NCBI RefSeq assembly: GCF_900110585.1
Contig: NZ_FOEG01000001.1
Span: forward strand, 219,338-251,337
Direction: 5' to 3'
From: Aquisalimonas asiatica
GTDB taxonomy: Bacteria > Pseudomonadota > Gammaproteobacteria > Nitrococcales > Aquisalimonadaceae
Length of the DNA stretch: 32,000 nucleotides
Part shown: positions 5,293-23,675 of the stretch, in pieces
Numbering within the stretch: position 1 is the first letter of the stretch
How the letters are laid out: each line of letters begins with the position of its first letter
Program-made: the position numbers and the translations under genes
The notes under the pieces: generated by a model
Told to the model about the DNA's origin: nothing
Database searches by the model: none
The model's input: the letters and a program-made list of their open reading frames with translations, nothing else

Positions 5293-8200
5293 TCAGAGCA
5301 GGGGGGTCAGCAGCACGGCCAGGAACAGCCCCGTGACCACGAAGATCAGCCGGCCGACGACCGACCAGAGCTGCATGCCGCGCTCGAGGTTCGAGATGCC
5401 GAGCACGGTGGGGGCCGTCCAGGCCGTGAGGTTCAGCCGCGCCGTCAGGGCCGGGAGTGGCGAGCGGAGTTGTGGCGGTCCGCCGCCCCGGAGCGCCAGG
5501 GCGGCGATGCCGAGCCCCAGCAGCACCGGCCATGCCGCACCGGTGAGCGCGGAGAGCGTCCACGCCTCGTGGAAGGCGTCCTCCCCGCGGAACCATGTCC
5601 AGGGCAGGAGCGTGGCCGCGACAACCAGTGTCAGCCACAGCAGCAGCGGCGCCCGTGCCATGGGCTTGTCGTGCCCGGGCTGCGTGGCCCGTGTGCACCA
5701 GAGGAACCGCATCATCAGCAGGGTGGTGGCGACGGCCGCAAGGTAAAGTGCCGGGGACAGCCAGCCTGCAAGGGGGCTGAGGTCCGCGGCGCCATCCAGT
5801 GCCGCCTTGCTGAGCGCGCCACTGGTCAGGGGCGCACCGGCGAGCGCCAGCGCCGGTAGCCACAGCGCCCTCCATACCAGCCGTTGCTGCGGTCCGCTGT
5901 CGGCGTCGAGCAGTCCGGCCCCCAGGAACAGGGCGCCCTTGTTCAACCCATGATGCATGACCAGCGCGGCCATGGCGGTGTATGCGGCTGGCGCGGCGTC
6001 GGTATGGGTCAGTGCAACGCCCGCCATGATCACCATCAGCCCCATCTGGCTGACGCTGGACCAGGCCAGGACCGTCTTCGCGGCCAGTGCCATCACGCCC
6101 CGCGCCGCGCCATAGAGCGCCGTAAGCAGCCCGAGCACCACCAGCAGCACCCCCGGCTCTGGAAACTGCCCCGCGGCGGGCTCGCTGATGCGCCACCAGC
6201 CAAGCGCCCCCGCCTTGATCATGACCCCGCTGAGCACCGCGCTGGCCGCAACGGGCGCCACCGGGTGCGCCAGAGGCAGCCACGCGTGCACCCCGAACAC
6301 GCCAAGCTTCATCGCAAAGCCGAACGCCAGCAGTGCCACGGCCAGTGGCGCGGTGGCCACGGGCGCCGCGAAGCCGGGCGGGGTTCCGGGGGCGCTGTGT
6401 GCCATGAGCATGGCGATGGCCAGCATCATGGCCACCTCGCCCAGCATCATCATGGCCACGTAGACGCGGCCCGCGGCGCGCGCCGCTTGTTGCCGGGAGT
6501 GGATGATCAGGCCGTAGGAGGCGAACGTCATCAGCGCCATGCCCACGTAGAAGGTCAGCAGATCCTGCGCATGGATCAGCGTCAGGTTGCCGGCAAGCGC
6601 AGCCAGCCATGCCAGCGCGAACACCGGGTGGCGGCCCGGCCTGTCGCCCGACTGCACGGCGAACCAGCCCGCGACGCTCCACAGTGTCGCCGCCACGATC
6701 AGGAACAGCCGGGTGACGGCGTCCACGCCGACGCTACCCAGGTGTACGGCCTCGGGGGTGAACATCGCGCTCAGCAGGGCGGGCACCGGCGCCAGCGGCA
6801 GCACCCAGCCCAGCGCCCGTTGGCGCGGCACCGCCAGCATGCACAGCCAGGGCGCGGCAAGCGCGAACCCAAGGAGGGCCAGCGTCGAGGCGTGGCCGGT
6901 CACCGTGGCCGTGATCGCACCCGGCGATACCTGCACCGCCGGCCAGGCGATGCCGGCGAGCACCGCGCCGACGGCGAGTCCGAGCGCGGCGCAGGCCAGG
7001 AATACCGGAGGTCGCGCATCGTCGGGCCCGGACCCACACCGGGGGCGGGCCGCCACGTCGATCATGCGGAACAGGTAGGCGGCGGTGAGCAGGGTGCCGG
7101 TCAGGATGATCACCACCCAGACCCACGCCTGCTCGGCGATGGCCGCCTGCAGCAGCCACAGCTTGCCGGTGAAGCCGCCGGTCGGGGGCAGGCCGATCAG
7201 CGAGGCGCACGCAATGGCCATGGCGATCCACGCCGTGCGCAGGCCGCGCTGGGGTGTGCCCAGTTCGCTCATGGCGTCGCTGCCGCGTGCCTTGATCACG
7301 CAGCCCGCACCGAGAAACAGGGCGGCCTTGGCGAGGCTGTGGGCCACCATGAGCAGCACCGCGCCGCTCCACGCGAGGGTGCCGGAGGCGGTTGCCGCCA
7401 GGGGGAAGACCAGCATGCCAAAGCCGATCTGCGACACGGTGGAGTAGGCGATCAGCATCTTCAGGCGGCGCTGAAGCAGCGCCTGGGCACCGCCCCAGAG
7501 CAGCGCCCCCGCTCCCAGAGCGCCCAGCAGCGGCGCCGCGCCCGTTGCGAGAAAGCCCGACAGCGGCCCGAACCACAGCCGGATCAGCAGATAGTAGGAC
7601 GCCGCAATCACGATGGCCGACAGCGCCGCGCTGACCACCGTGGGGGCGCGCCCGTGGGCCTTGGGCAGCCAGAAGTGGAGCGGAAACACGGCGCTCTTGA
7701 GCAGCAGACCCACAGTAACAAAGGTCACCGCCACCGCCGTGACCGGGTCCACGGCGATGCGCTCGCCCAGGAGTGCCAGGTCCAGCACGCCGTACTGCCC
7801 GTACAGCAGGGCGACGCCCATGAGATAGATCGAGGAGCCCAGCACCATGGCGAGCAGATAGCGCCAGGCAGCGCCCAGGGCGTTCTCCCCGGCGAGGGCG
7901 ATCAGCCCGACGGCAGCCAGGGTCAGGACTTCCAGCGCCACGAACAGGTTGAACAGATCGGCGGAGAGAAACAGCGCGTTGAGCCCTGCCAGCAGGAACA
8001 GCCATAACGGCCAGAACAGCGGCGCCTGCCCGCCCTCGAACGCGCGGAACGCGGCGCAGAGGGTGGCGATGCCGGCGGCAAGCACCAGCATCAGCGCGGC
8101 CAGCCCGTCCACGACCCAGACGATGCCGAGCGGCGCGCCCCATCCGGCGAGCTCGTGCTGTGCGGTACCGTCCGACATCACCCGGGCGGCGAGCATCAGC

Positions 8201-8623: not shown

Positions 8624-9562
8624 TCAGCTCTCCCCGTGCCAGTGGTCCGGCGGCCGACCGCAGAGGTAGACCGCGAACATGAGCAGCGCGATGGACAGCG
8701 CCGCACTGATCTCCAGCGCCAGGATCAGCGGTGCCGCAAGCGCGTGCGGATAGGCGAAGAAAGCGCCCTCCAGGGCGGCCATGACCACGGCTACCGCGAC
8801 CATGGCGATCAGGCCGAGGGAGAGCAGCCAGCGCCATGGGCCGTGCTCCTCGCCGGTCAACCAGGGCCGCGCGCCCGCCAGTACCATGAGAATGCCCCCG
8901 GCGCCCATGACGGCACCGGCCTGGAACGCACCACCGGGCGCGTGGCTGCCGCGCCAGAGCAGGTAGGTGGCCGCAAGCACGAACACCGGAAACAGGGCAC
9001 GCCCCAGGGCCGGCAGGGCCGGGGAGGGCATTTTCGGCACGATGGGGCTGGGCGCCGGCCCCAGTGACCAGATCGCCACGGCGCCCACCAGCAGCACGCC
9101 GATCTCCAGCAGGGTGTCGAACGAGCGGAAGTTCAGCAGCACGGCGGTGACGGGGTTGTCCACGCCGGACTGCGCCATGGACTGTTCCACGGCCGTGCCT
9201 AGCCCCGGGGCCGGGAGTTGCCACGCGGTCACCGCCAGCACCAGCAGGGTCACTCCGGCGAACGGCAGCCAGAACACCAGCTCGCCGGGGCGGCGCCAGT
9301 GGCTCTGCCCGCCGCCGGAGCCGTCCTTGAGGCGGGCGAGCGCCGACAGCAGCAGCGCGCCCGTGGCGCCAGCGCCGATGGCGGCCTCCGCCAGGGCGAT
9401 ATCCGGCGCTTCCAGGCGCACCCAGATCAGGGCCATGACCAGCCCGAACACCATGTAGCTGACCACCGAGCGGAACAGCCCCGGTGCGTGCATGGCCTGC
9501 CACGCCAGCCAGAGCAGCGCCAGCCCGAGCAGCCCGTCGAACGTGTGCGCCAGCCAGTCCAT
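8624..9562 (-). CDS. mrpB: MbhD/DUF4040-like domain fused to an MnhB-like Mrp subunit B, 312 aa
   Basis: The N-terminal part (LAEAAIGAGATGALLL) resembles DUF4040/MbhD. The C-terminal part (VTAVLLNFRSFDTLLEIGVL) is the MnhB signature. The ATG shares 1 nt with the mrpG stop (TGATG). Confidence 0.8.
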   Translation of the reverse strand: MDWLAHTFDGLLGLALLWLAWQAMHAPGLFRSVVSYMVFGLVMALIWVRLEAPDIALAEAAIGAGATGALLLSALARLKDGSGGGQSHWRRPGELVFWLPFAGVTLLVLAVTAWQLPAPGLGTAVEQSMAQSGVDNPVTAVLLNFRSFDTLLEIGVLLVGAVAIWSLGPAPSPIVPKMPSPALPALGRALFPVFVLAATYLLWRGSHAPGGAFQAGAVMGAGGILMVLAGARPWLTGEEHGPWRWLLSLGLIAMVAVAVVMAALEGAFFAYPHALAAPLILALEISAALSIALLMFAVYLCGRPPDHWHGES

Positions 9563-10785: not shown

Positions 10786-11874
10786 TCAGGCGTGTGATCG
10801 CTCCCGCATCCAGGAGAGGACGCTCGGCCAGAGGTCGCGGTGGGCGCTGGCGCCGACCATCATCCCCACGTGCTGCAACGAGACCCCGGGCTCGTCCTCG
10901 TACCAGAACAGGGCCCGGTCGTCCGTGCCCAGGGCGTCGAGGGCGGGCAGGACCGACGCCGGCGAGGCGATCTCGCACTGGCGGTTCAGCACACAGCCCA
11001 CGGGCGCGCGGATATCGGCCGGGCCGACCGCACGGCCGCCGATGGTGACGCGGCGGGTCAGAAACCCGTCCTGCCGGTAGAGAATGGTGACCAGGTCCGA
11101 GAACAGCTGCCGGGGCATGGCGCTCTCGCCCAGGGTCCAGCGCTCCACCAGCAGGTGGGAGCGCAGCCGGTCGGGATGTCCCAGGGAGGAGAGCCAGTCG
11201 GTGACGCGCTGGTAGACGAACGTCTCCGGCGATGCGGTCACGCCGATCAGGTTCAGCATGGAGCCGGGGATGACGCCGCCCTCTCCGGCGTCGGCGGGGG
11301 TGTCGCTGTAGGAGGCCACCACCCGCGCGAGCGCACCGGTCTGCGGTGCGAAGTGCAGCGGGGCGCCGAGCACCACCAGCCCCCGGACCAGCTCCGGGTG
11401 GCCGGCGGCAAACAGCGCCGCCAGCGTGCCGCCCAGGGAATGGCCGCTGAGGAGGAGCCGGTCCTCGCCGGTGTCCTGCCGGACCGCGTCGACGCAGGCG
11501 CCCAGCATGCGGTCGGCGTAATCCTGAAGGCCCAGGGGGGCGTCCGTCCCGGTGGCGTCCGGCCATTCCACCATGTACACGCGAAAGCCCGCCTCCAGGT
11601 GGCGTTGCACCACGCTGGCGGTGGGGTCCAGGTCCCAGATGTCGGGCGTCTTGATCGGTGCCGGCACCAGCAGGACGGCCGGTCCGTCGGCTGCGGCGCC
11701 CGCGTAGCGGCGCACCGTTGCCCCGGCGGCCGTCTGCAGGTGCTCGTAGGGGCTGCATCGCGGGCCGAAGCCCAGGGCATCACAGATGCCGGCCAGCCAG
11801 CGACGCTGGTGGTCCACGGTGAGTAGCGCCGCGTGCAGCGGGGCGAACGTGCGTTGCGGGGTGTCTTCGATCAC
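10786..11874 (-). CDS. Alpha/beta hydrolase related to class III PHA synthase PhaC, with a Ser nucleophile
   Basis: It is collinear with class III PhaC over most of its length (VYMVEWPD..., LQHVGMMVG His region). The lipase box reads SGHSLGG, where PhaC has G-x-C-x-G-G. The start is GTG at 11874. Confidence 0.7.
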   Translation of the reverse strand: MIEDTPQRTFAPLHAALLTVDHQRRWLAGICDALGFGPRCSPYEHLQTAAGATVRRYAGAAADGPAVLLVPAPIKTPDIWDLDPTASVVQRHLEAGFRVYMVEWPDATGTDAPLGLQDYADRMLGACVDAVRQDTGEDRLLLSGHSLGGTLAALFAAGHPELVRGLVVLGAPLHFAPQTGALARVVASYSDTPADAGEGGVIPGSMLNLIGVTASPETFVYQRVTDWLSSLGHPDRLRSHLLVERWTLGESAMPRQLFSDLVTILYRQDGFLTRRVTIGGRAVGPADIRAPVGCVLNRQCEIASPASVLPALDALGTDDRALFWYEDEPGVSLQHVGMMVGASAHRDLWPSVLSWMRERSHA

Positions 11875-11955: not shown

Positions 11956-13578
11956 TTACTGGTTCATGGGCGTGCGGAAGTGCTCGTCGAGGCGCTCCAC
12001 TTCGGTGTCGATGTCTTCGTCCGGCTCCACGTCGCTGCTCTCCAGGCGGTGTTGCGCCGTCGGCAGCCGGATCTCGAACTCCACGCCGTTGATATTGAGC
12101 GGCTCGATGCTGACCCGGTGCGCCTTGCGCCTGGGGGCGTAGTCCAGCCGCCAGTGCGGGCGCTCCGGGTGCGCAGGGTCGAAGTGGCGCTGCTTGCCGC
12201 TGGCGGCGAAGTCGTCCAGGCGCTGGGTGTCGTCACTGTCCTCCGGGGTGATCTCCACGCTTTTCAGTGGAGACGTGAACGTCCACTCCCGGGCGCCGTC
12301 GGGCTCGCCGTCGTGGGTGGTGGTGTCCAGCGTTTCGGTGATCACCTCGCCGTCGTCCAGCTCCAGCCGCACGGTATAGCGCGCGGTCGGGGTTTCGATG
12401 TTGTGCACGTCGATGCGGCCTTCGTAGCCCTTCACGATCTCGCCCACGAAGTACAGCCCCAGCCCGCGGCCGTGGTGTTCGTTGGTGCGGCGCGTGGAGT
12501 AGCCGAGCTGGAAGAGGTTGTCGCGGTCCTCGTCGCGGATGTGCGGGCCGCGGTTGTACACGCGCAGGCAGGCGTGGCCGTGTTCCTCGGTGAGGGTGAG
12601 GGCCACGGGCGCGAACGCCTTCTTGAAGCCGCGCTTGTTGGCGAAGAACTGCGCGTTCTTGAGCAGATTCTCCAGCAGCAGCACCAGGTGGTTCTCGTTG
12701 CCCAGCAGCTCGCCGGCCGGCTCCAGATGCACGGTCCACTTGCTGTCGTGCAGGGTGTAGCCGGTGTCGTCATCGGGGGCGGGCATGGTTTCGTTGCGCA
12801 CCGCGCCGAGCGCCCGCCAGGCGGCGCGCTGAGGCAGATAGGCCGGCTCGTAGGGCAGGGCGGCGTGGTGGTCACCCTGGAGCTCCCGCTGCACGTAGTG
12901 CTCCTCGCACTCGCACAGGTGGTTGCTGATGTGCAGGGCGAGGTTGTCGGCGGTGGAGAGGTCCAGCAGGTCCCAGAGATAGCGCATGGCGTCCAGGGCG
13001 GCTTCGTACTCCGCCTGCCGGGCGGCGGCGTCCGGGGTGTCGCCGCCGGTTGCGTCCAGCGCCGCGCGGTTGGCGGCGGCTGCATGCTGCAGGGCCGTCT
13101 GCACCTTGTCGAAGCTGATCACGCCGTTGTGGCGCACTTCCGCGGCGATGCTCTTGAAGTGCAGAAACTTCTCGTCGTACTCGATGTACTCCAGCAGCTT
13201 GTCGCTGATGAACAGCTTCAGTTTGTCTGCGTGGCCGGAGTAGGTGTGCGCCTTCATCTGCAGCTGCTTCTTGCGCTCCCACAGCGCGTCGAGCTGGTGG
13301 TTGAGGTGCAGCAGATCGGCCTTCTGGCCGGCGTACTGGCGCCGGTAGCGGCGCAGATCGAGGAGCAGCAACAGAATGAACCCGCCCAGCGCTCCGTAGG
13401 CGGCATCCAGCCGCAGCCATTCGCGCGGGATGTCGTAGTAGGTGGCGAGCCAGGGCTCGTTCACCGCCAGCAGGTAGGCGAGCGCAAGAAGGGCGCCCAA
13501 GGCGCTCAGCCACGGGAAAGTGACCTTGGTGATCCGCGTGGTCGGGCGGCTGATGTCGGCGTCGTCGGTGTCGGTCAT
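11956..13578 (-). CDS. Atypical membrane-anchored sensor histidine kinase (GHKL ATPase), 540 aa
   Basis: It has two N-terminal TM helices with almost no periplasmic loop. The N-box is LLENLLKNAQFF and the G2 box is GRGLGLYF, but the G1 position reads YNRGPH instead of DxGxG. About 100-130 extra acidic residues lie near the C-terminus. The start overlaps the response-regulator stop (ATGA). Confidence 0.8.
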   Translation of the reverse strand: MTDTDDADISRPTTRITKVTFPWLSALGALLALAYLLAVNEPWLATYYDIPREWLRLDAAYGALGGFILLLLLDLRRYRRQYAGQKADLLHLNHQLDALWERKKQLQMKAHTYSGHADKLKLFISDKLLEYIEYDEKFLHFKSIAAEVRHNGVISFDKVQTALQHAAAANRAALDATGGDTPDAAARQAEYEAALDAMRYLWDLLDLSTADNLALHISNHLCECEEHYVQRELQGDHHAALPYEPAYLPQRAAWRALGAVRNETMPAPDDDTGYTLHDSKWTVHLEPAGELLGNENHLVLLLENLLKNAQFFANKRGFKKAFAPVALTLTEEHGHACLRVYNRGPHIRDEDRDNLFQLGYSTRRTNEHHGRGLGLYFVGEIVKGYEGRIDVHNIETPTARYTVRLELDDGEVITETLDTTTHDGEPDGAREWTFTSPLKSVEITPEDSDDTQRLDDFAASGKQRHFDPAHPERPHWRLDYAPRRKAHRVSIEPLNINGVEFEIRLPTAQHRLESSDVEPDEDIDTEVERLDEHFRTPMNQ

Positions 13579-14588: not shown

Positions 14589-16112
14589 GTGATCATCATG
14601 TTGGCTGACATACTCTACATCTGGTCGGATTCGCCGGGGCTGTCACTGGCCATCTGGCTCGTGATCGGCATAACCGTGTTGTACCTGGGGCGCCCCCACG
14701 CCCACCACGTGCTGCGTGGAACCGGGCGGGCCATCGACGGCGCCCTGCGACTGGCCGCCGCCAGCCTGCGGCAGCTCGAGAAGCGGGTGGCGAAGCGCAA
14801 CCGCGACGTGCTCCTGGCCGTGGGCCGGGAAGAGGCCGAGAAGGCCATCGAGCGGGAGTTCACCCGCGTCAACGCCATCGTCGAGCGCGAGCTCAGCCAC
14901 TACCCGGCGCTGCACCGCAAGCTCGCCGAGACCATCGAGAAGATCGAGGGCGACTACCAGGCCTCCACCGATCAGGCGCCGTTGCCGCCGGACTGGTCCG
15001 AGCTCACGTCTACCATCTCCTCGCTGCCCAGCTCCGGCGATCCGGCCGTGGGCAAGATCCTGGAGAACATTCGCGAGGCCGTGGAGAACTCCCACAAGGA
15101 GACGCTCAAGGCCTACCAGAAGAGCGTGAACGAGCGCCACAAGATCCTGCACGGCATGCAGGGCGACTGGCGCACGGTGAGCACCACCATGGACAAGGTG
15201 CAGACCACCATCACCGGCCTGGAAGAGCGCGCCGCGGCCATCGACCGCCACATGGCCAACTACGAGGCAATGCGCCGGGAAGACGACAAGGCCGTGCACG
15301 CGCTCACGGCGTCGTCGGTGACGCAGTTCTTCATCGCCTCCCTGGTGCTGGTGATCGCCGCCTTCGGCGGCCTCATCAACTTCCACCTGATCGCGCTGCC
15401 CATGTCCGAGATGGTGGGCGGGGCGGCCTACATCGGCTCCATGCGCGTGTCCGACATCGCCGCGCTGGTGATCATCATGGTGGAGATCTCCATGGGGATA
15501 TTCCTGCTGGAGGCGCTGCAGATCACCAAGCTGTTCCCCATGATCGGCCGCATGGACGACCGCATGCGCAAGCGCATGGCCATCGCCGCGTTCACCATCC
15601 TGTTCATCTTCGCCAGCATCGAGGCCTCGCTCGCCTACATGCGGGACCTGCTGGTGATGGATCAGCAGGCGCTGACCCAGTCCCTCGCGGGCGGTGCGGC
15701 TGCCGAGGCGCAGTTCCGCTGGATTCCGTCGGTGGCGCAGCTTCTGCTCGGGTTCATCCTGCCGTTCGCGCTGGCCTTCGTCGCCATCCCGCTGGAGGCG
15801 TTCATCAACTCCCTCCGCACGGTCCTCGGGCTGCTGGTGCTGGGCGTGGTGCGTGTGCTGCCGGTGGTAGTGCGGCTCGCCGGCGGCGTGGCCAGCCACC
15901 TGAGCAAGGTGCTCGTGAGCCTCTACGACCTGCTGATCATGCTGCCGCTCAGCATCGAGCGGATGATCGCCCACCGCCGTGAAACCGCCCATGCGGTGGA
16001 CGAGGACGACACCGACGCGGACACCCCCGCGAAACCGAAGACCAAGCGCCGCCGCCGCGCCAGCAGCGATGCCGACACGGACGACACCCAGCTCACCGAA
16101 CGGGAGGCCTGA
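14589..16112 (+). CDS. Multi-pass membrane protein with a long N-terminal coiled-coil-like cytoplasmic region; function unknown
   Basis: The 507-aa ORF has coding-like composition. It has one N-terminal TM, about 200 aa of charged helical sequence, at least 5 TM segments, and a K/R- then D-rich tail. The start is GTG at 14589 or ATG at 14598. Confidence 0.75.
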   Translation: MIIMLADILYIWSDSPGLSLAIWLVIGITVLYLGRPHAHHVLRGTGRAIDGALRLAAASLRQLEKRVAKRNRDVLLAVGREEAEKAIEREFTRVNAIVERELSHYPALHRKLAETIEKIEGDYQASTDQAPLPPDWSELTSTISSLPSSGDPAVGKILENIREAVENSHKETLKAYQKSVNERHKILHGMQGDWRTVSTTMDKVQTTITGLEERAAAIDRHMANYEAMRREDDKAVHALTASSVTQFFIASLVLVIAAFGGLINFHLIALPMSEMVGGAAYIGSMRVSDIAALVIIMVEISMGIFLLEALQITKLFPMIGRMDDRMRKRMAIAAFTILFIFASIEASLAYMRDLLVMDQQALTQSLAGGAAAEAQFRWIPSVAQLLLGFILPFALAFVAIPLEAFINSLRTVLGLLVLGVVRVLPVVVRLAGGVASHLSKVLVSLYDLLIMLPLSIERMIAHRRETAHAVDEDDTDADTPAKPKTKRRRRASSDADTDDTQLTEREA

Positions 16113-16115
16113 GCC

Positions 16116-16835
16116 ATGCTGACCAACACCAACCAGACGCAGACCGCATCCACCACCCGGCCCAACGCCCGCCGCACGCGGCGGGGCCTGGCCCTGGCCT
16201 TCTGTGCCGCCGTCGCCACCGCGCTGAGCGGCTGCGGCGACCCGGCCAACAACAGCCGCGCCGCCTTCGTGCTGGTGGATATCTCCGAGAACTACGCCAG
16301 CGAGATGGAGAAGGCCCGCACGCTCACCAACCACCTGCTCGCGCAGATGGAGAGCGGCGATTCCCTGGCCATCGGCTTCATCGATAACAGCAGCTACTCC
16401 GAGCGCAACATCATCGCCAGCGCCGAGTTCGACCACCGGCCGAGCGTCGCTACCCAGCAGAAGCGGGAAGTGCGCGCCGACCTGGATGCCTTCCTGGAGC
16501 GCTTCCGCGTGCCCAGTGCGCACAGCGACATCACCGGCGGCGTGTTCCTGGCGCGGGACTTCCTCAACGAGGCCAACGCCGGCGAGCGTCAGCTCTACAT
16601 GGTCTCCGACCTGAACGAAGACCTCATGCCCGACCTCAAGCGCGACATCCCCCTGAACCTCAAGGGTGTCGACGTGGTGGCCGTGAACGTCACCCGCATG
16701 AGCGGCGACAACCACGACCCGCGCGCCTACGAGCGTCGCCTCGCCGACTGGCAGGAGCGCATCGAGTCCGGCGGCGGCCAGTGGCGCGTGGCCAACAACC
16801 TGGCACGGCTCGAGGTCGTGACCGCACAACAGTAA
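16116..16835 (+). CDS. Lipoprotein with a VWA-like (variant MIDAS) fold
   Basis: The lipobox is LSGC. FVLVDISEN, SDITGG and YMVSDLNED are spaced like VWA MIDAS elements. GGGAGG lies 8 nt upstream, and the start is 3 nt after the upstream stop. Confidence 0.7.
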   Translation: MLTNTNQTQTASTTRPNARRTRRGLALAFCAAVATALSGCGDPANNSRAAFVLVDISENYASEMEKARTLTNHLLAQMESGDSLAIGFIDNSSYSERNIIASAEFDHRPSVATQQKREVRADLDAFLERFRVPSAHSDITGGVFLARDFLNEANAGERQLYMVSDLNEDLMPDLKRDIPLNLKGVDVVAVNVTRMSGDNHDPRAYERRLADWQERIESGGGQWRVANNLARLEVVTAQQ

Positions 16836-16852: not shown

Positions 16853-17566
16853 ATGAGCGCACGCAACTACCTCCTGGTCCCAGGCGCCTGGACGGGCGCC
16901 TGGGTCTGGCATTACGTCGAACAGGCGCTGCGCGCACGGAGGCAGAACGCACGCTCCATGACACTCTCCGGCCTGGAAACGCTGGATGGCGACGTCTCCG
17001 CCATCCGGCTCAGCACCCATGTGCAGGAGGTGATGCAGTACATCCACGAGCGCGACCTGCAGGACGTGATCCTCGTGGGCCACGGCTACGGCGGGTTGGT
17101 GATCGGCCAGGTGGCCGACCTCCAGCGCGAGCGCATCGCCCACACCGTGTACGTGGACGCCAGCCTCCCGCGCGACAGGCACTCCATGGTCGACACCATC
17201 GGCCTCGACCCCGCGCACGAAGCCCGGCGCATCAGCGCCAACAACGGCCGCTGGCCCGCACCGGACGCGGAGGCCCTGCAGCAGGAGGCGGGCCTCTCCA
17301 CGGAGCACGCCCGGTTCCTCAGCGAACGGCTCGTGGGCCACCCGGGCCACGCCGTCACCGACCCGGCCGTGCTCGACCGGCCCCTGCACCATCAGGCCGG
17401 GACGGTCATCACCAGCGACACCGCAACCACGCCGGACCACCCCAACCACTGGCGCACCTACCACCTGGACGCCGGCCCCTGGCCCATGCTCTCAGCCCCG
17501 CTGGAGCTAACCTCCCTCCTCACACACCGCAGTGCCGGGCCGGAAGCCGCCTGCAAAGCAGGGTAG
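16853..17566 (+). CDS. Alpha/beta hydrolase (SABP2/methylesterase-like) lacking the nucleophile serine
   Basis: YLLVPGAWTGAWVW and ILVGHGYGG align with the HGxxHGxWxW and VGHSxGG motifs of the family. The nucleophile codon is GGC (Gly) at 17084-17086. Confidence 0.75.
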   Translation: MSARNYLLVPGAWTGAWVWHYVEQALRARRQNARSMTLSGLETLDGDVSAIRLSTHVQEVMQYIHERDLQDVILVGHGYGGLVIGQVADLQRERIAHTVYVDASLPRDRHSMVDTIGLDPAHEARRISANNGRWPAPDAEALQQEAGLSTEHARFLSERLVGHPGHAVTDPAVLDRPLHHQAGTVITSDTATTPDHPNHWRTYHLDAGPWPMLSAPLELTSLLTHRSAGPEAACKAG

Positions 17567-17798
17567 GCCCCGGCGCAAAGCAGCCTCCAAAACACCTGTT
17601 TGGCCCATGGTGCATTCTCCGGTAATGTCTCCAATAGGCAACGCTGGCGGGGCTCGCCATGGAAGCCATTACAAACAGGGGTGAGCCCCGGCTCGTGAAT
17701 AAGAATATTCGGTGGACGACCCTACCTATCCCTACAAGAGTGCGCGAACTGATCATGTCATCGAAAGCTGACAGACAGGAGCAAAACAACATGGTATT

Positions 17799-17862
17799 AC
17801 TGCGAAGCAGCCGCGACTGCGACATAACGAAGTTGATGTCGCAGTCGCGGCTGCTTCGCAGT
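17799..17862. repeat. Perfect 27-bp-stem hairpin with a 10-nt loop
   Basis: ACTGCGAAGCAGCCGCGACTGCGACAT (17799-17825) is the exact reverse complement of 17836-17862. The loop is AACGAAGTTG. Confidence 0.9.
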
Positions 17863-17924
17863 GTCGGTGCTTTTCTCCGCTGTCGTCTTCCGAGCCAAGA
17901 TGGATTGGCTCAAGGATAATTTTG

Positions 17925-18054
17925 GCCTAACTAGCCGTTCGAGCACCACGCCTCGTAGATGGCATTTTGAAGGTGTACCCCGAGGGGCGATTTTGTTGCT
18001 TTTTTTGGTGAGTACTGGAATACGGGCGCGTTGCTCAACTTGCTTACGTTATGC
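17925..18054 (+). repeat. attC-like site 0
   Basis: R'' is GCCTAAC (17925-17931), a perfect RYYYAAC. L'' 17937-17952 pairs with L' 18025-18039 at 13 of 15 positions with one bulged C (17940). R' is GTTATGC (18048-18054). Confidence 0.6.
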
Positions 18055-18086
18055 GCTGGTACGTAATTTGATCTGGAGTCCTGCGG

Positions 18087-18827
18087 ATGGAAGAGATGTT
18101 GAGGACGATTGATAAAAGGCGGGCCCTAGAACTTGAGTTGATACCGGCGCGGCTCGCAAACGTAGTTCGTGTTAAACACGGGTTGCTCGATGGAAACACT
18201 CGTTCAGACTTGGAGGCCGCACAGCACTTGGGGTTAAGCGAGGCCAGCTTTAAGGGGCTCCTGTACGAGGCTTACTCCCAGATCAGGGCCCTTCAAGGAG
18301 TACTACCAGTCCCAGAACTTGAGCGCCGACCTCCTACGAAGGTGTTTGTTTCGTACTCGTGGGACTCCGAAGAACACAAAGCCTGGGTCAGATGGGTTTC
18401 TGAGCGGCTTGTATTTAATGGTCTGCAGGTTCTGCTAGACCAATGGGATATGCACCCTGGCGTAAGTTTCACACAGTTTATGGAGCAGAGTATTGCGAAC
18501 GCGGACTTTGTCTTATGCGTTTTTACGCCCTCTTATGCGGAAAAGGCGAACAATAGGCAGAGTATTTCCGGTACGGGCTACGAGCAGCAAATCGTTTCAG
18601 GGCAGATAATGTCCGGAGCACCTAGGTCCAAGTTTGTTCCGATACTTAGAGCGGGAACCTATCAAGCGGGTAGGGAGTGCGCTATACCAACCCATTTTAT
18701 GGGGGTTGTGTGTGAAGATTTTAGAAGTGACGAGGATTTTGAGGTTTCTTTAGAATCCTTGCTCAGGATGCTTTATGGCAAGCCGAAATACATGCCTCCC
18801 CAGATAGGTGTCGAGCCAACACTTTAG
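18087..18827 (+). CDS. Sigma-70 region-4-like HTH fused to a TIR/SEFIR-superfamily domain, 246 aa
   Basis: The N-terminal segment LIPARLANVVRVKHGLLDGNTRSDLEAAQHLGLSEASFKGLLYEAYSQIRAL aligns with the sigma70 r4 pattern. The C-terminal segment KVFVSYSWDSEEHKAWVRWVSERLVFNGLQVLLDQWDMHPG...ADFVLCVFTPSYAEKA...GYEQQ is a typical bacterial TIR/SEFIR core with a candidate catalytic Glu. GGAG lies 8 nt upstream of the ATG. Confidence 0.85.
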   Translation: MEEMLRTIDKRRALELELIPARLANVVRVKHGLLDGNTRSDLEAAQHLGLSEASFKGLLYEAYSQIRALQGVLPVPELERRPPTKVFVSYSWDSEEHKAWVRWVSERLVFNGLQVLLDQWDMHPGVSFTQFMEQSIANADFVLCVFTPSYAEKANNRQSISGTGYEQQIVSGQIMSGAPRSKFVPILRAGTYQAGRECAIPTHFMGVVCEDFRSDEDFEVSLESLLRMLYGKPKYMPPQIGVEPTL

Positions 18828-18907
18828 CATAACAACAACATCGAGTCCGACGGCTCACCCTTACGCTGCGCGCCAGGGCAAGCCGCGGCTCATGTGGAGC
18901 GTTATGG
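18827..18907 (+). repeat. attC site 1 (81 bp)
   Basis: R'' GCATAAC starts on the last base of the TAG stop. L'' 18838-18854 pairs 14/14 with L' 18882-18895, leaving three single-base bulges, all on the L'' side. R' is GTTATGG (18901-18907). R'' is the exact reverse complement of GTTATGC at the cassette start (18048-18054). Confidence 0.75.
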
Positions 18908-18945
18908 CGCTTGGGATAGTCAGCAGATGAGATGAGGAGGCGAAA

Positions 18946-19164
18946 ATGCACAGATTCATTATCAACAAGAATCAGCAGGCCAATGGCGATCACGAGGTTC
19001 ACAATGCGACCACGGATTGTTCATATATGCCGAATCCTGAGAACCGAATAGACATGGGCTATCACGCGTCATGCCATGGGGCGGTTGCTGAGGCTAAACG
19101 CCGCTGGCCAGGGAACAGAATTAACGGCTGCTACTATTGTGCTAATGCATGTCATACAAGCTAG
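18946..19164 (+). CDS. Small Cys/His-rich protein (putative metal-binding), 72 aa, function unknown
   Basis: A strong SD (GAGGAGG) lies 6 nt upstream. The motifs are GDHEVH...C...C-H...GCYYCANACH. I recognise it only as a recurrent small hypothetical family. Confidence 0.75.
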   Translation: MHRFIINKNQQANGDHEVHNATTDCSYMPNPENRIDMGYHASCHGAVAEAKRRWPGNRINGCYYCANACHTS

Positions 19165-19166
19165 CA

Positions 19167-19314
19167 CCATAACAAGGCAATCAAGTTCGCTCCCTGCGGT
19201 CGCCGGATGACCTTGCCCGGCTGCCTTCGGGAAACTGGCCGCATGAACGTGTCCAATTCAGCCGGGCAAGGTCACTGGCGCTCCAATGCCGGCCGGTTAA
19301 GCTGAGCGTTAGAA
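19167..19314 (+). repeat. attC-like site 2 (long; 3' boundary ambiguous)
   Basis: R'' CCATAAC (19167-19173) is the exact reverse complement of GTTATGG at the cassette start. There is a central perfect 16-bp stem (19208-19223 / 19259-19274). R' candidates are GTTAAGC (19296-19302) and GTTAGAA (19308-19314). The L''/L' pairing is weak. Confidence 0.45.
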
Positions 19315-19352
19315 ATATGGACGTGCATCAGTTCTAATTCCTAGAAATATTA

Positions 19353-19382
19353 TTAATTTGTGGTGTGAGGTTGACCTATAAT
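19353..19382 (+). promoter_or_regulatory. Possible cassette-internal promoter
   Basis: A consensus -10 TATAAT lies at 19377-19382, about 50 nt upstream of the 19433 ATG. Only a weak -35 (TTAATT, about 18 nt upstream) is present; the TTGACC at 19371-19376 is too close to serve as -35. Confidence 0.2.
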
Positions 19383-19432
19383 TCTTGCGTCTTAGTGAGT
19401 GATTTGAGAGATAGAATTTTCGATGGTGGCGT

Positions 19433-20377
19433 ATGAATAATATTGATTGGTTGACTGTTGTTCCCTCTGCGATGTCTGCAATAGCCGCAGTTGCTGCCGC
19501 TTATGCTGCATTTGTCGCACTCCGTGTTAGCCGGAAAGCGAACTATTTGTCTGAGAAAAGTATATTAGCAGCTCATCATAGTGATGCCGCATGTGTGCTT
19601 TCAAGTTCAATTGATAGGCTCAAAAAAGAAACAAAAGATTTATCGGAATGTTCATATCGATTATGGGTAGATTGGTCTAGAGAGATTGAATCAAAAGACG
19701 ATCGCCGAAATGGAGGGTCAAATCCTAGACCTTTACGGCATGTTCTGACAAATGGGAGTGAAATGCTAGTGGCGCATGGCACGCTAAATGGAAAACGGTA
19801 TAGGCATGCGCAACGATCAATGTTCTCTATTGTTAGAGATGGCGTAAGCGGGTTAGATGGTAATGAATACAACGGGTTACTCCAAAAGGCGGACGGCACA
19901 TATGGTGATTTTGAAAGCACTTTTGGTTTGCCGCCGATAAATCGAAAAATCGGTGAAGCAAAAGCCTTTAGATGGGTTCTTTATCAGTTAGCAAGGAGGG
20001 TTAATCACAATGATTGGCTTGAAATCTGGAAAAGAGCGTGGCTAGATGATGGCTGGATTGTCAAATACCGACGTGAATTTTCGAAAGTGAAACCAGTTCT
20101 GGAAGAAGTGCATGACTCGCTGAAAGTGGAAAAAAAGAAAGTGACTTACAGCGTGATTCCTCTGGAGTCCAACGCCATGCTGCATAGAAAATATGAAATG
20201 CTATTATCAGAAGTGGAGATTCTTCTGGATGATTGCAGTTTGGATTCATTGGAGATATATCGCGATTGGGAATATGCCGAAGATGTTAGTCAATTGGTTC
20301 TCTATTCGATGGGGGTGGCGAATTTGGTGGGGAAGATTTTAGATTCGATCTATTCGGGAAGTGATCTGGATAGGTGA
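19433..20377 (+). CDS. Membrane-anchored protein (one N-terminal TM helix), 314 aa, no recognisable domain
   Basis: It is the only long ORF in an AT-rich stretch, which makes a spurious ORF unlikely. The TM helix is VVPSAMSAIAAVAAAYAAFVAL, and the remainder is hydrophilic and K/E/D/W-rich. Confidence 0.75.
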   Translation: MNNIDWLTVVPSAMSAIAAVAAAYAAFVALRVSRKANYLSEKSILAAHHSDAACVLSSSIDRLKKETKDLSECSYRLWVDWSREIESKDDRRNGGSNPRPLRHVLTNGSEMLVAHGTLNGKRYRHAQRSMFSIVRDGVSGLDGNEYNGLLQKADGTYGDFESTFGLPPINRKIGEAKAFRWVLYQLARRVNHNDWLEIWKRAWLDDGWIVKYRREFSKVKPVLEEVHDSLKVEKKKVTYSVIPLESNAMLHRKYEMLLSEVEILLDDCSLDSLEIYRDWEYAEDVSQLVLYSMGVANLVGKILDSIYSGSDLDR

Positions 20378-20378
20378 T

Positions 20379-20531
20379 TTCTAGTAAGCGCACGTTTTCG
20401 GAATGGTTTTTAGATGTGATATTGCCCAGAGAAATTGGGCACATTCATATGGCCAGGTTCCCAAAGCCGGCCGGCAAAGGCAGGCGAGATCAGGGTGGAG
20501 GCTGAGCAGCAAAAGAAAGCCTTGGTTAGGA
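20379..20531 (+). repeat. Degenerate attC-like site 3
   Basis: TTCTAGT (20379-20385), 1 nt after the stop, matches 5 of 7 positions of TTCTAAC, the complement expected from cassette start GTTAGAA. The right arm shares GCCGGCCGG...GCTGAGC...GTTAG(G/A)A with attC-2. R' is GTTAGGA at 20525-20531. Confidence 0.3.
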
Positions 20532-20965
20532 AAGGTGGCGTGAAGAAGAAGTAAGGGAAAAGATACTGAGTGCGTGGTTCGAGCCGCGCACATATGAGTA
20601 CGTACCTGTCAGCGCATTCGTGGGTTTCGAAAAGCAGGCCCGGCTAAACAGAGAATTGGTTTTTGCACTTGATCGTCGAGGTGACGGGCATCGGGTAGAG
20701 AATTCGGCGTTGGGCGCGCTCCCACAGATTGAGCGATTGTGCCAGAGCCTTTCTGAGATAGGGCGCTTCACGCAAGTAGTCAAACACGGAGGTTGTGATC
20801 GAGGCATCTACATCTAGATGTGGAGTCTTGGTTTCCTTGCCACGGAATCTGTGCACTGGGACGCAATTGCTACCAGTGGCTTCAAGGCGGCGTCATTCCT
20901 GATTTGCCCCAAGGTGGGTCAATTAGGCTTGTCCGTTGATGTTGGTTCTGTTTGGGAGGGATATA

Positions 20966-21274
20966 ATGAAAGCATCGGTTTTTCTCGTTCTGTTGTTGAG
21001 TTTTCTGTTTATTGGTCCAGCCAACGGGGGCGATCTTAAGTCAGTATCTGCAGCTGGAGGACTAGAAGAAGTCGGTTTGCTAGAAATTACGGCCCCGACT
21101 GTCGACAGTCCCTGTGCTGGCGAAGAGATTAGCGATTCCGTCCTGTTTGAAGGCGACCAGTTGTTAGCACAGCGCTGCTGCAGGATATGTAGAAGGGGTA
21201 AGGCTTGCGGGGATACTTGCATCAACCGCAACTACACTTGCACGCGACCGCCCGGTTGTGCGTGTAATGGCTGA
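20966..21274 (+). CDS. Small secreted Cys-rich protein, 102 aa
   Basis: GGGAGGG lies 6 nt upstream of ATG 20966. The signal peptide is MKASVFLVLLLSFLFIGPANG. The C-terminus CCRICRRGKACGDTCINRNYTCTRPPGCAC has 9 Cys in 30 aa. Confidence 0.7.
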   Translation: MKASVFLVLLLSFLFIGPANGGDLKSVSAAGGLEEVGLLEITAPTVDSPCAGEEISDSVLFEGDQLLAQRCCRICRRGKACGDTCINRNYTCTRPPGCACNG

Positions 21275-21393
21275 CTTAGCGCTCGGGTAATGTGGTATCT
21301 ACGGGAGTGAACGGATTCGCTCCTCGTTTAGTAGCCTGCCGATCTACGTTTTTTCCGTGTGTCATCAAGGACTCCTCCACGCAGCCTTCCTGG

Positions 21394-22575
21394 TCAGTTC
21401 TGCCCCAACCCCAACAACTTCGGCCGCTCCCCCTGCGTCTGCCAGCGCCACAGCCACTCCAGCGGGCCCTGCCGGAATACCGCCAGCCACAGGGCGCTGA
21501 ACAGCAGTTGGGCGAGGAAGACGCCGCCGGCGATGGTCACCGCGGTGGTCAGCGAGATTTCGGCGAAGAGGTTCAGGCCGAAGCCGTAGAAGAGCGGCAC
21601 ACAGATCACGGACTGGCCGACGTAGTTGGTCAGCGCCATGCGTCCGGCCGGGGCCATGAACGCACGGGTTGCCCGGGCGAGGATGTTGCCGCTGTAGCCC
21701 CAGAAGAGGAGCAGCAGGCCGGCGTAGCCGATGGCCATCAGCGGCGGCGAGGCGATCTCGGCGGCGATCTGCCCCGGGTGCTCGGGTGCCAGATTGGCGA
21801 TCATGCCGTGCTCCACCAGGGCGAGCGGGAATCCGATGGCAAGGCCGGCCAGGGCGGTTGCGAGCAGCGGCCAGCGGTACGTGCCGATGGACTCCACCAG
21901 CTGCATCCGCGCGGCGGCCGCGCCCAGCAGGAACAGCGCCATCACCTTCACTCCCCGCAGTGACTCCAGCCGCTCCAGCGCCGTGGCGACGCTCAGCTCC
22001 ACGTTGGCCTTGACCACATCGACGAAGCTGCCCCCGGAGAGGTGGTGGATGTTATCCCCCAGCCGGTGGGCGCCCATGGTCTCGTACGGGCCGGGGATGT
22101 CCAGGCCGAGCCAGTACCACCGCGCCGCGATGGTGGCACCAAGCAGTGCGACGCCCCAGAGAATGAGCGTCAGCGGCCGGCAGTTGAGGAATGGGGTGAG
22201 CAGGAACCCGACCAGCGCGTAGAGGGTCAGTATGTCCCAGGGCCAGAAGAGCACGCTGTGGGCGGCGCCGAACGCCAGCAGCCCGATCATGCGGCGGCGG
22301 TGGAACGCCGGGCCGCCAGCGCCCATGCGGCTGGCGAGCATCACGAAGCTGTAGCCGAACAGCAGTGAGAACAGGCCGTAGAACTTGCCCTCGAAGAAGA
22401 GGTGCATGATGGCCTCGGTGAGCGGGTCGTTGCCCGCGCCGGGCAGGGCCTCCCGTTCGCCGGGGCCGAGGTAGCCCCAGCCGGAGAACATCTGGATGTT
22501 CACCACGAGGATGCCCAGCAGGGCGAATCCGCGCAGTGCATCCAGCGAAGCGAGGCGTTCGCTCTGACGGCCCAT
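21394..22575 (-). CDS. DUF418/YeiB-like multi-pass membrane protein
   Basis: The N-terminus RLASLDALRGFALLGILVVN is characteristic of the DUF418/DUF1624 family. The protein has about 10 TM segments. Confidence 0.8.
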   Translation of the reverse strand: MGRQSERLASLDALRGFALLGILVVNIQMFSGWGYLGPGEREALPGAGNDPLTEAIMHLFFEGKFYGLFSLLFGYSFVMLASRMGAGGPAFHRRRMIGLLAFGAAHSVLFWPWDILTLYALVGFLLTPFLNCRPLTLILWGVALLGATIAARWYWLGLDIPGPYETMGAHRLGDNIHHLSGGSFVDVVKANVELSVATALERLESLRGVKVMALFLLGAAAARMQLVESIGTYRWPLLATALAGLAIGFPLALVEHGMIANLAPEHPGQIAAEIASPPLMAIGYAGLLLLFWGYSGNILARATRAFMAPAGRMALTNYVGQSVICVPLFYGFGLNLFAEISLTTAVTIAGGVFLAQLLFSALWLAVFRQGPLEWLWRWQTQGERPKLLGLGQN

Positions 22576-22628
22576 GCATTACACCCTTTGATACTGTATG
22601 CACCCGCTCACACGGAGAAGGCACAACG

Positions 22629-23675
22629 ATGAATGGAAAATGGAGTTGGCTGACAGGCCTGGGCGTGGCGACCGCGATCACGTTGACTGCGACGGCCGTC
22701 ATGCCGGTTCTGGCGGACAGTGGTGACAGCGCAATGCGAGACCAGATTAAAGCCATTGATGAGCGTATGCCAGGCCAGTTCGGTGTTTACATCAAGCGGC
22801 CGGCCACGGGCGAAGCGATCGACTACCAGGCGGACCGCGACTGGTATCTGGCCTCGACCATCAAGATCCCGTTGGCCGTGGCGGTGATGCAGCGCGCCGA
22901 GGAGGGCGAGCTGTCGCTGGATGACGAGCTGGAGCTGGCGGAATCCGACTACGTGGACGGGGCCGGCGAGCTGCTGGCTGCCGAGCCGGGCACGCGCTAC
23001 AGCCTGGAGGAGCTGATCGGCCATTCCATCCGCGACAGCGACAGCTCCTCCACGGACATGCTGATCCGGCTCCTGGGGGAGGAGTCGTTCAACGACCAGG
23101 TCAGCCGGGAGATGCCCGAGGCGCGCATGAACCCCATTACCACCATCGTGCAGGTGCGCTTCGACGCCTACGCCAATGTCCACCCGGATGCGGAGACGCT
23201 GACCAATATGGATTTCATCCGCCTGCGCTCGGCGGCGTCGCTGGATGAGCGCTACCACGCCTTTCTCGACAAGATCGGAGCGGGTGCCTCCGAGGCAAAC
23301 GCCGACAGCCTTGAAGAGGCGTTCGGACGCTACTACGAGACCGGGCTCAACTCCGGCCCCCTGACCGGCTTCGGCGCCATGCTGGAGCGCCTTTGGGAAG
23401 GCGAGCTGCTGAACGAGGACCACACCGGGCGGCTCATGGCACAGATGGAGCAGGTCACCACCGGCGACCGCCGCATCCGCGCCGGGCTCCCGGACGGCAC
23501 TCCGTATGCCCAGAAGACCGGCACCCAGATCAACCGCGCCTGCGACGTGGGTATCATCCACCCCGAGGATCCGGAGCGCACCACCATCGTGGCTGCCTGC
23601 GCCGAAGACTACGGCGATCTGCGTCACGCCGAAGAGGCCTTCCAGGCGCTGGGGCGGTTACTCGCGGAGCAGTGA
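22629..23675 (+). CDS. Class A beta-lactamase-related serine hydrolase (secreted)
   Basis: It has a signal peptide, an SxxK motif (STIK), an SDS/SDN-like motif (RDSDSS) and KTG (QKTGTQ). ATG at 22629 follows GGAGAAGG. Confidence 0.8.
   Translation: MNGKWSWLTGLGVATAITLTATAVMPVLADSGDSAMRDQIKAIDERMPGQFGVYIKRPATGEAIDYQADRDWYLASTIKIPLAVAVMQRAEEGELSLDDELELAESDYVDGAGELLAAEPGTRYSLEELIGHSIRDSDSSSTDMLIRLLGEESFNDQVSREMPEARMNPITTIVQVRFDAYANVHPDAETLTNMDFIRLRSAASLDERYHAFLDKIGAGASEANADSLEEAFGRYYETGLNSGPLTGFGAMLERLWEGELLNEDHTGRLMAQMEQVTTGDRRIRAGLPDGTPYAQKTGTQINRACDVGIIHPEDPERTTIVAACAEDYGDLRHAEEAFQALGRLLAEQ

Follow-up and report, generated by a model that had tools for sequence, protein, structure and literature searches.

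SEFIR- and TIR (toll/interleukin-1 receptor)-based single-gene defences are already known, and the trigger of most of them is still to be learned. A locus of Aquisalimonas asiatica raises the question of what controls a SEFIR domain when the position of its sensor is taken by a domain resembling region 4 of sigma-70 (sigma4). The gene lies in a 32,000-nucleotide stretch of contig NZ_FOEG01000001.1 (positions 219,338 to 251,337, hereafter the window). We found that a known type of single-gene phage defence occurs here in a rare form that has not been described before, with a sigma4 domain joined to a SEFIR domain. We lean towards reading the protein as a sensor-swapped SEFIR NADase for single-gene abortive infection, carried on an integron cassette and regulated by a sigma4-derived protein-interaction domain; the NADase activity, the role in defence and the binding partner of the sigma4 domain are what we infer.

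An earlier note on this DNA, made from the letters and their open reading frames (ORFs), gave the ORF position exactly (18087-18827, plus strand), and all of its motifs, KVFVSYSWDSEEHKAWV, LLDQWDM, ADFVLCVFTPSYAEKA and GYEQQ, are present in the protein. The identical NCBI entry from A. asiatica (WP_091639199.1 / SEO46942.1) carries the product name TIR domain-containing protein and is the sole member of its own 90% cluster. The TIR/SEFIR core that the note placed in the C-terminal part is borne out by Pfam, PADLOC, PDB and Foldseek searches. In Pfam, the HMMER comparison suggested there finds both TIR_2 (PF13676, residues 86-225, E = 1.7e-20, 74.2 bits vs a gathering cut-off of 28) and SEFIR (PF08357, residues 85-180, E = 5.1e-11, 43.5 bits vs 23) above their gathering scores. 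The PADLOC bSEFIR hidden Markov model (HMM; PDLC03957) matches with 206 bits (E = 4.2e-61), with residues 80-244 aligned to positions 37-195 of 412, or 39% of the HMM. The AlphaFold2 (AF2) model of the full protein, built with 46 homologs, has a mean predicted local distance difference test score (pLDDT) of 92.4. Its best Foldseek matches in the PDB are the prokaryotic SEFIR structures 5y8e (Bacillus cereus, E = 1.2e-10, 35% identity) and 5y8f, followed by the TIR NADases of SPARTA, SARM1 and TIR-STING. In a phmmer search of the PDB, 5y8e reaches 4e-21 and the best TIR 1e-3, and a family profile brings 5y8e to 2.8e-50 and the human Act1 SEFIR (9ot1) to 6e-9 across the whole domain. The relative strength of SEFIR and TIR depends on the test, as TIR_2 outscores SEFIR in Pfam hmmscan (74 vs 43.5 bits), whereas SEFIR exceeds any TIR by far in the PDB search. 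The authors of bSEFIR based their own SEFIR-versus-TIR comparison on HHsearch; ours used Pfam hmmscan and the PDB searches.

The published SEFIR system is a single-protein defence in which the N-terminal SEFIR domain depletes NAD+ by converting it into ADP-ribose (ADPR) plus nicotinamide; its relatives show enrichment in defence islands, and their role in defence has been validated. In the window protein, the candidate catalytic residue is E166 of the GxGYE motif. The residue is kept in at least 90% of 46 homologs and is aligned with the glutamate of "GVGTE" in the B. cereus SEFIR and with an isoleucine in the non-enzymatic human Act1 SEFIR. In the AF2 model, it stands at the start of the helix formed by residues 165-175, after strand betaC. 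Because the alignments to the classical TIR NADases BtTir, AbTir and PdTIR stop just short of the motif, we regard its equivalence to the TIR catalytic glutamate as no more than plausible.

At the profile or fold level, and only there, the N-terminal domain can be recognised as a diverged form of sigma-70 region 4. Single-sequence searches of the N-terminus in Pfam and NCBIfam give no Sigma70_r4 (PF04545) match, and the sole Pfam match is a very weak one to PhyR_sigma-like (E = 0.088). PF04545 is reached by one of the five family members (E = 8.5e-4), and the window protein stays under its gathering threshold. When five sequences were combined in a family profile and compared with the PDB, positions 11-67 matched region 4 of Thermotoga maritima sigmaA (1tty, 1.7e-4), followed by about 20 region-4 chains of SigA, RpoD and RpoS, with the extracytoplasmic function (ECF) and FliA sigma factors scoring far lower. 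In hhalign, the domain is paired with six genuine region-4 sequences at 96.9% probability (E = 1.7e-10, 52 columns), and an HMM of genuine sigma4 detects the ortholog L011 at 2e-5. The AF2 model of this domain alone has a pLDDT of 85, and all of its top 50 Foldseek matches in the PDB are sigma region 4 (TM-score up to 0.76, root-mean-square deviation 1.3-2.4 Å), led by domain 4 of sigmaA in complex with phage G1 ORF67 (4g6d). In a viral structure library, most of the named matches among the top 50 are sigma factors of phages or proteins with a Sigma70_r4 domain. The likeness to sigma-70 region 4 put forward in the earlier note is therefore real at this level, although the Pfam Sigma70_r4 check proposed with it gives no single-sequence match and the homology comes from profiles against the PDB, hhalign and Foldseek.

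The first ~84 residues are conserved in the full-length homologs P0002, P0003, P0005 and P0007. The best-conserved stretch of this N-terminal region is the GVLPVPELEP linker between the two domains, in which L73, P74, V75, P76 and E79 are invariant across the family. Like region 4 of primary sigma factors (PF04545; 1tty, 1ku7, 4g6d), the domain has a four-helix fold, with its best matches among the group 1/2 sigma factors, and the two share the pattern L-x-P-x-x-x-x-V-x-R-[VL]-[KR]-[HYF]-G-L-x-D-G ... A-x-x-L-G. Unlike those factors, the window protein is without sigma2 and sigma3 and without the arginines and the glutamine that contact the -35 element, and it is fused to an enzyme; the helix that lies C-terminal to R599 in sigma factors is replaced by the conserved proline-rich linker. 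No Sigma70_r2 or Sigma70_r3 match was found in Pfam, and just 84 residues precede the SEFIR domain.

Compared with bSEFIR (Millman et al. 2022), the window protein belongs to the same SEFIR subfamily and shares the single-gene form, the association with mobile elements and the presumed depletion of NAD+. The SEFIR domain of bSEFIR is N-terminal, whereas here it is C-terminal and runs to the end of the protein. The ~200-residue C-terminal region of bSEFIR is absent and a sigma4-like domain stands in its place, in a protein of 246 residues vs a model of 412 positions. Its authors defined the system by an N-terminal SEFIR domain with a C-terminal region after it, and the window protein has the opposite order. 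The possibility of a split bSEFIR, with the C-terminal part encoded in an adjacent cassette, was rejected because the neighbours have no PADLOC matches. Thoeris is likewise not indicated, with ThsB1 HMMs at E = 0.0018 and 0.038, ThcB4 at 22 bits vs a cut-off of 220, and neighbours without defence matches. The PADLOC bSEFIR model spans the SEFIR part only, an NCBIfam search of the protein returned nothing above cut-off, and full-text searches of the literature brought up no sigma4 domain fused to TIR or SEFIR. The architecture, which the earlier note did not recognise as a described one, is thus not catalogued.

An exhaustive HMM search of 1.84 billion protein representatives gave seven family members (clusters) below 1e-10. 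The weaker matches of the N-domain HMM, between 1e-10 and 1e-3, are sigma factors; ten of ten tested are Pfam Sigma70_r4-positive well above threshold. In 185,579 species genomes, with one genome per species, there are 185 SEFIR loci, and one of these, L011, has the sigma4 domain. A scan of the genome collection by full-length alignment likewise gave L011 as the one ortholog, and a scan with an N-domain peptide pattern gave no matches. In 57 of the 80 best genomic SEFIR loci, the SEFIR domain is N-terminal with varied C-terminal regions after it, as in bSEFIR. Related SEFIR domains also occur on 166 plasmid records and six phage records, and in prophages; the sigma4 N-domain was found on none of these plasmid or phage records. 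An abundant marine lineage carries an intact ortholog that is fixed at a single site of the chromosome (61 contigs, 150 collection blocks).

Across six genomic contexts, we found no conserved neighbour gene. The homologs are located among toxin-antitoxin modules; the AAA ATPase, the TumE-like pair and HigBA are each limited to two contexts, at differing positions. The 368-residue AAA ATPase (94% identical between L001, 1466-2572, and L011, 7400-8506) was rejected as a partner, as it lies on opposite sides of the sigma4-SEFIR gene in these two loci and does not occur in the window or in L002, L003 and L005. The opposite placement speaks for cassette shuffling and not for a functional partnership.

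Independent deletion derivatives that have lost the SEFIR domain and kept sigma4 recur in the family (P0049-P0052, P0054, P0058, P0006; L011 9941-10756; L001 2646-2951). In some of them, sigma4 is fused to the last 40 residues of an Unstab_antitox antitoxin, which is located 1.6 kb downstream in L001 (88% identity). Other derivatives have sigma4, together with part of SEFIR in L011, continuing out of frame into a HigB-like toxin gene (higB), and further ones have internal deletions. Among the proteins found with the N-domain HMM, several long ones (P0057, P0071, P0053, P0055 and P0060) have an odd make-up of many Sigma70_r4 modules in tandem, matched over 6-7 stretches; in some a normal sigma2-sigma4 core comes first, and some have tetratricopeptide (TPR) repeats.

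The earlier note took the N-terminal domain to be a fold that binds the -35 element, which the recognition helix makes doubtful. The contact residues of E. coli sigma70, which we take to be R584, E585, R586, R588 and Q589, correspond to E52, A53, S54, K56 and G57 in the hhalign register. Family-wide, R584 is replaced by E, L or V, R586 by S, E or D, and Q589 by G, E or A. The net charge of the helix is 0 in the window protein and 0 to +1 in the family, vs +5 in sigma70. With three of the five contact residues gone, -35 DNA binding has probably been lost, judging from the alignment.

The two domains also differ in their rate of change. In three close soil homologs, omega (the ratio of nonsynonymous to synonymous substitution rates) is 0.53-0.73 for residues 1-70 vs 0.17-0.24 for residues 85-246; over close pairs, the SEFIR value is 0.00-0.24, and omega is below 1 in both domains. 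Two natural alleles of the marine lineage differ at nine of 70 sigma4 residues and at none of 162 SEFIR residues, a pattern with a probability of ~(70/246)^9, or ~1e-5, under an even spread. Six of these nine differences fall within residues 15-27, which are aligned with sigma70 region 4.1. The synonymous divergence (dS) is also ~2-fold higher in the sigma4 part than in the SEFIR part, so recombination may contribute to the divergence of sigma4. Because the contact residues are lost, the helix is uncharged and sigma4 evolves ~3-fold faster than SEFIR, protein sensing is likelier than promoter binding. Of the three roles that the earlier note had offered, mimicry of a protein interface fits best, and DNA recognition and autoregulation fit less well.

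In the mechanism that we favour, the C-terminal SEFIR domain would be the effector and, by homology with bSEFIR, would self-associate upon a trigger. It would then hydrolyse NAD+ to ADP-ribose and nicotinamide, with E166 as the likely catalytic residue, and the loss of NAD+ would arrest the infected cell. The sigma4 domain would most likely serve as its sensor or regulatory part by recognising another protein instead of binding a promoter. A precedent for a sigma-derived domain as a protein-binding mimic is the sigma-like domain of PhyR, the anti-anti-sigma mimic of the alphaproteobacterial general stress response. PhyR combines sigma2- and sigma4-like parts with a receiver and titrates NepR, whereas the window protein combines sigma4 with SEFIR and has no partner-switching components nearby. 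SPARTA TIR-APAZ, TIR-STING, ThsB and SARM1 share the TIR-superfamily fold with it (Foldseek E 1e-6 to 1e-4), and the logic expected to be common to sensor-fused TIR NADases is that the NADase site is built by oligomerisation under the control of a sensor module. Their sensors are different, namely Argonaute with guide RNA, a cyclic dinucleotide sensor and an ARM domain; the matches of the window protein to ThsB and TIR HMMs are weak (E 1e-3 to 1e-7), and it has no partner genes.

To seize transcription, phages often use proteins that attach to region 4 of sigma70 or to the site on the beta-flap where it docks, such as T4 AsiA and phage G1 ORF67. A possible but unlikely elaboration is that the sigma4-like domain is an integrated decoy of region 4 of the host primary sigma factor, which detects such takeover proteins. 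The binding of a takeover protein to the sigma4 bait, which changes fast and has probably lost its hold on DNA, would release or assemble the SEFIR domains and so lead to NAD+ depletion.

The other readings, in which the N-terminal domain binds DNA, serves as a scaffold of a toxin or belongs to silent cargo, are less well supported than a SEFIR NADase under the control of a protein-sensing sigma4 domain. It is doubtful that the domain is still a DNA-binding helix-turn-helix (HTH) that represses its own cassette promoter, as in an autoregulated toxin, or senses invader DNA. Foldseek and hhalign do identify the fold as a -35-binding HTH, the equivalent of R588 is K or R in five of the six N-domain sequences compared and that of R599 is invariant, and N-terminal autoregulating HTH domains are common in toxin-antitoxin and defence genes. 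Yet the replacement of R584, R586 and Q589 and the charge of the helix speak against it, as do the upstream regions. Those of the six loci contain no common palindrome or operator, their conservation is limited to the ~50 nt next to the ribosome-binding site (RBS) in one subgroup, and the window gene, with 33 nt between the attC R' site and the ATG, has no promoter-like site. An autoregulatory operator was rejected on the same grounds.

Somewhat less probable again is that the N-terminal domain is a mere structural or oligomerisation scaffold, and the protein a constitutive or stress-activated NADase toxin, or an adaptor, without phage sensing. Some bacterial TIR proteins have comparable helical N-terminal regions, bacterial SEFIR domains were initially proposed as general protein-interaction modules, and the neighbouring cassettes are of toxin-antitoxin type. 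For a pure scaffold, a 3-fold faster change than that of its effector, clustered at residues 15-27, would be unexpected; moreover, there is no conserved antitoxin-like partner, and SEFIR relatives are validated, island-enriched defence genes.

The gene is cassette cargo in an array of CALIN type (an attC cluster without integrase), not a demonstrable complete integron. The earlier note had called it integron cassette cargo, and the attC-bounded cassette stands; the array is at best a CALIN, because tblastn with an IntI1 sequence finds no integrase in the 32-kb window (nothing below E = 2.6). The bottom strand of the downstream attC has the canonical fold, in which an R-box is followed by a spacer that stays unpaired and a stem with bulges, and by chance alone the window should contain 0.02 copies of its core-pair pattern. 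The marine ortholog lies in a three-ORF insert between ychF and an EF-G paralog, with GCATAAC after each ORF and the same attC-like cores at every ORF boundary, and no integrase was found within 10 kb of it. As the marine attC folds are weak, the cassette assignment rests mainly on the sites of the window and on the core positions. In L011, a bog gammaproteobacterial metagenome-assembled genome with a truncated ortholog, a ~50-nt element (GCGTTTAAAATTGGCGTCCCCACGGGTAC...) recurs between gene units every 0.9-2.6 kb (6896-6945, 8687-8736, 11312-11361, 13234-13283 and about 14160); it may be an attC-related boundary element, though its conserved part outruns the expected R' site. In L001, GCGTTTAAAAT stands upstream of the sigma4-SEFIR copy.

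Both sedentary chromosomal and mobile integrons carry phage-defence genes on their cassettes, as is also stated in an abstract. The present locus resembles such cassettes in its compact one-ORF form, bounded by attC and with no detectable promoter, in an array with toxin-antitoxin and unknown cassettes. It differs from integrons in that the window, like the 10 kb around the marine ortholog, contains no IntI or attI and that the arrays are short, CALIN-type and inserted between housekeeping genes. The island is flanked by an alpha/beta-hydrolase gene on one side and a DUF418 gene on the other. In its first segment, an inverted repeat (27 bp, perfect, 10-nt loop; 17799-17862) lies inside the probably spurious ORFs 17659-17919 (+) and 17520-17825 (-); it folds as DNA at -39.9 kcal/mol (z = -13.7) and is unique in the window. 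The repeat might be a terminator, a non-coding cassette or a mobile-element remnant, and, if a terminator, it would keep read-through transcription out of the SEFIR cassette. Scanning the window for Rfam families and tRNA genes gave no matches.

It is improbable that the cassette is silent or decaying in the A. asiatica genome and at present without a function: the lack of an integrase in the window and of an upstream promoter-like site, the many deletions in relatives and a gene GC of ~51% in a 67% GC genome, indicating recent acquisition, would suit such cargo, but the ORF is undamaged, has a good RBS and keeps every conserved motif, both domains have an omega below 1 and the intact marine ortholog is fixed at its site.

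Several points weigh against a sigma4-regulated SEFIR defence. The case for E166 as the putative TIR catalytic glutamate is one of conservation and position. The higher omega of sigma4 could mean relaxed constraint or recombination instead of an arms race. The derivatives that have lost SEFIR imply that the gene is often dispensable or costly. No promoter-like site was found upstream of the gene in the window, and this, together with the 27-bp hairpin before the cassette, means that this SEFIR copy may be poorly expressed.

Table 1. Positions in the window of the sigma4-SEFIR gene, its parts and the surrounding cassette features.
Feature	Position	Strand	Details
sigma4-SEFIR coding sequence, complete	18087..18827	+	246 residues and TAG stop, ATG start; WP_091639199.1
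Shine-Dalgarno-like GGAG (RBS)	18075..18078	+	8 nt 5' of ATG, read from sequence
sigma4 domain, residues 1-70	18087..18296	+	AF2 helices 2-18, 21-30, 41-47, 52-70
Equivalent of sigma70 -35 recognition helix, residues 51-67	18237..18287	+	SEASFKGLLYEAYSQIR; net charge 0; without R584, R586, Q589 equivalents
Interdomain linker, residues 71-84	18297..18338	+	GVLPVPELERRPPT; conserved in family
SEFIR (TIR-superfamily) domain, residues 85-246	18339..18824	+	Pfam, PADLOC, Foldseek and PDB profile matches
E166 codon, GxGYE motif, candidate catalytic glutamate	18582..18584	+	Conservation, alignment
Low-GC island with cassette array, 3.7 kb	17567..21290	.	43-54% GC vs genome ~67%
Upstream attC-like site	17925..18054	+	R'' GCCTAAC ... 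R' GTTATGC; ends pair, fold no better than shuffles (z 0.05)
Downstream attC site	18827..18907	+	R'' GCATAAC overlaps stop codon, R' GTTATGG 74 nt on; z -3.1
attC-like site, next cassette	19167..19314	+	CCATAAC ... GTTAGAA; z -2.9

The island contains further cassette ORFs at 18946-19164 (72 residues, Cys/His-rich), 19433-20377 (314 residues, with an N-terminal hydrophobic helix) and 20936-21274 (112 residues, Cys-rich, with a signal-peptide-like start); none of the three has a Pfam or PADLOC match. Directly upstream of the hydrolase gene and the island are two genes, one for a 507-residue protein (14589-16112) with a weak ZorA/MotA-ExbB-like match in PADLOC (E = 0.003), and after it one for a 239-residue putative lipoprotein (16116-16835) with a von Willebrand factor A (vWA)-like DxSxS motif. 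To the right of the island, the gene of the DUF418 membrane protein (21394-22575) adjoins a class-A-type beta-lactamase family gene (22536-23675; Pfam Beta-lactamase2, 2e-43).

The ecological weight of so very rare a family is small. The compact cassette-borne defence candidate adds to the evidence that integron arrays are stores of immune genes. Its sensor slot is filled by a recognisable domain with mapped surfaces for the beta-flap of RNA polymerase, anti-sigma factors, phage sigma appropriators and activators. The search for the trigger of the putative NADase is thereby narrowed to a short list of testable partners. If the sigma4-like domain is indeed a decoy, bacteria would monitor the hijacking of their transcription machinery by effector-triggered immunity, and this would be the first bacterial immune protein to guard that machinery with a sigma-factor mimic, like the integrated decoys of plant nucleotide-binding leucine-rich repeat (NLR) proteins.

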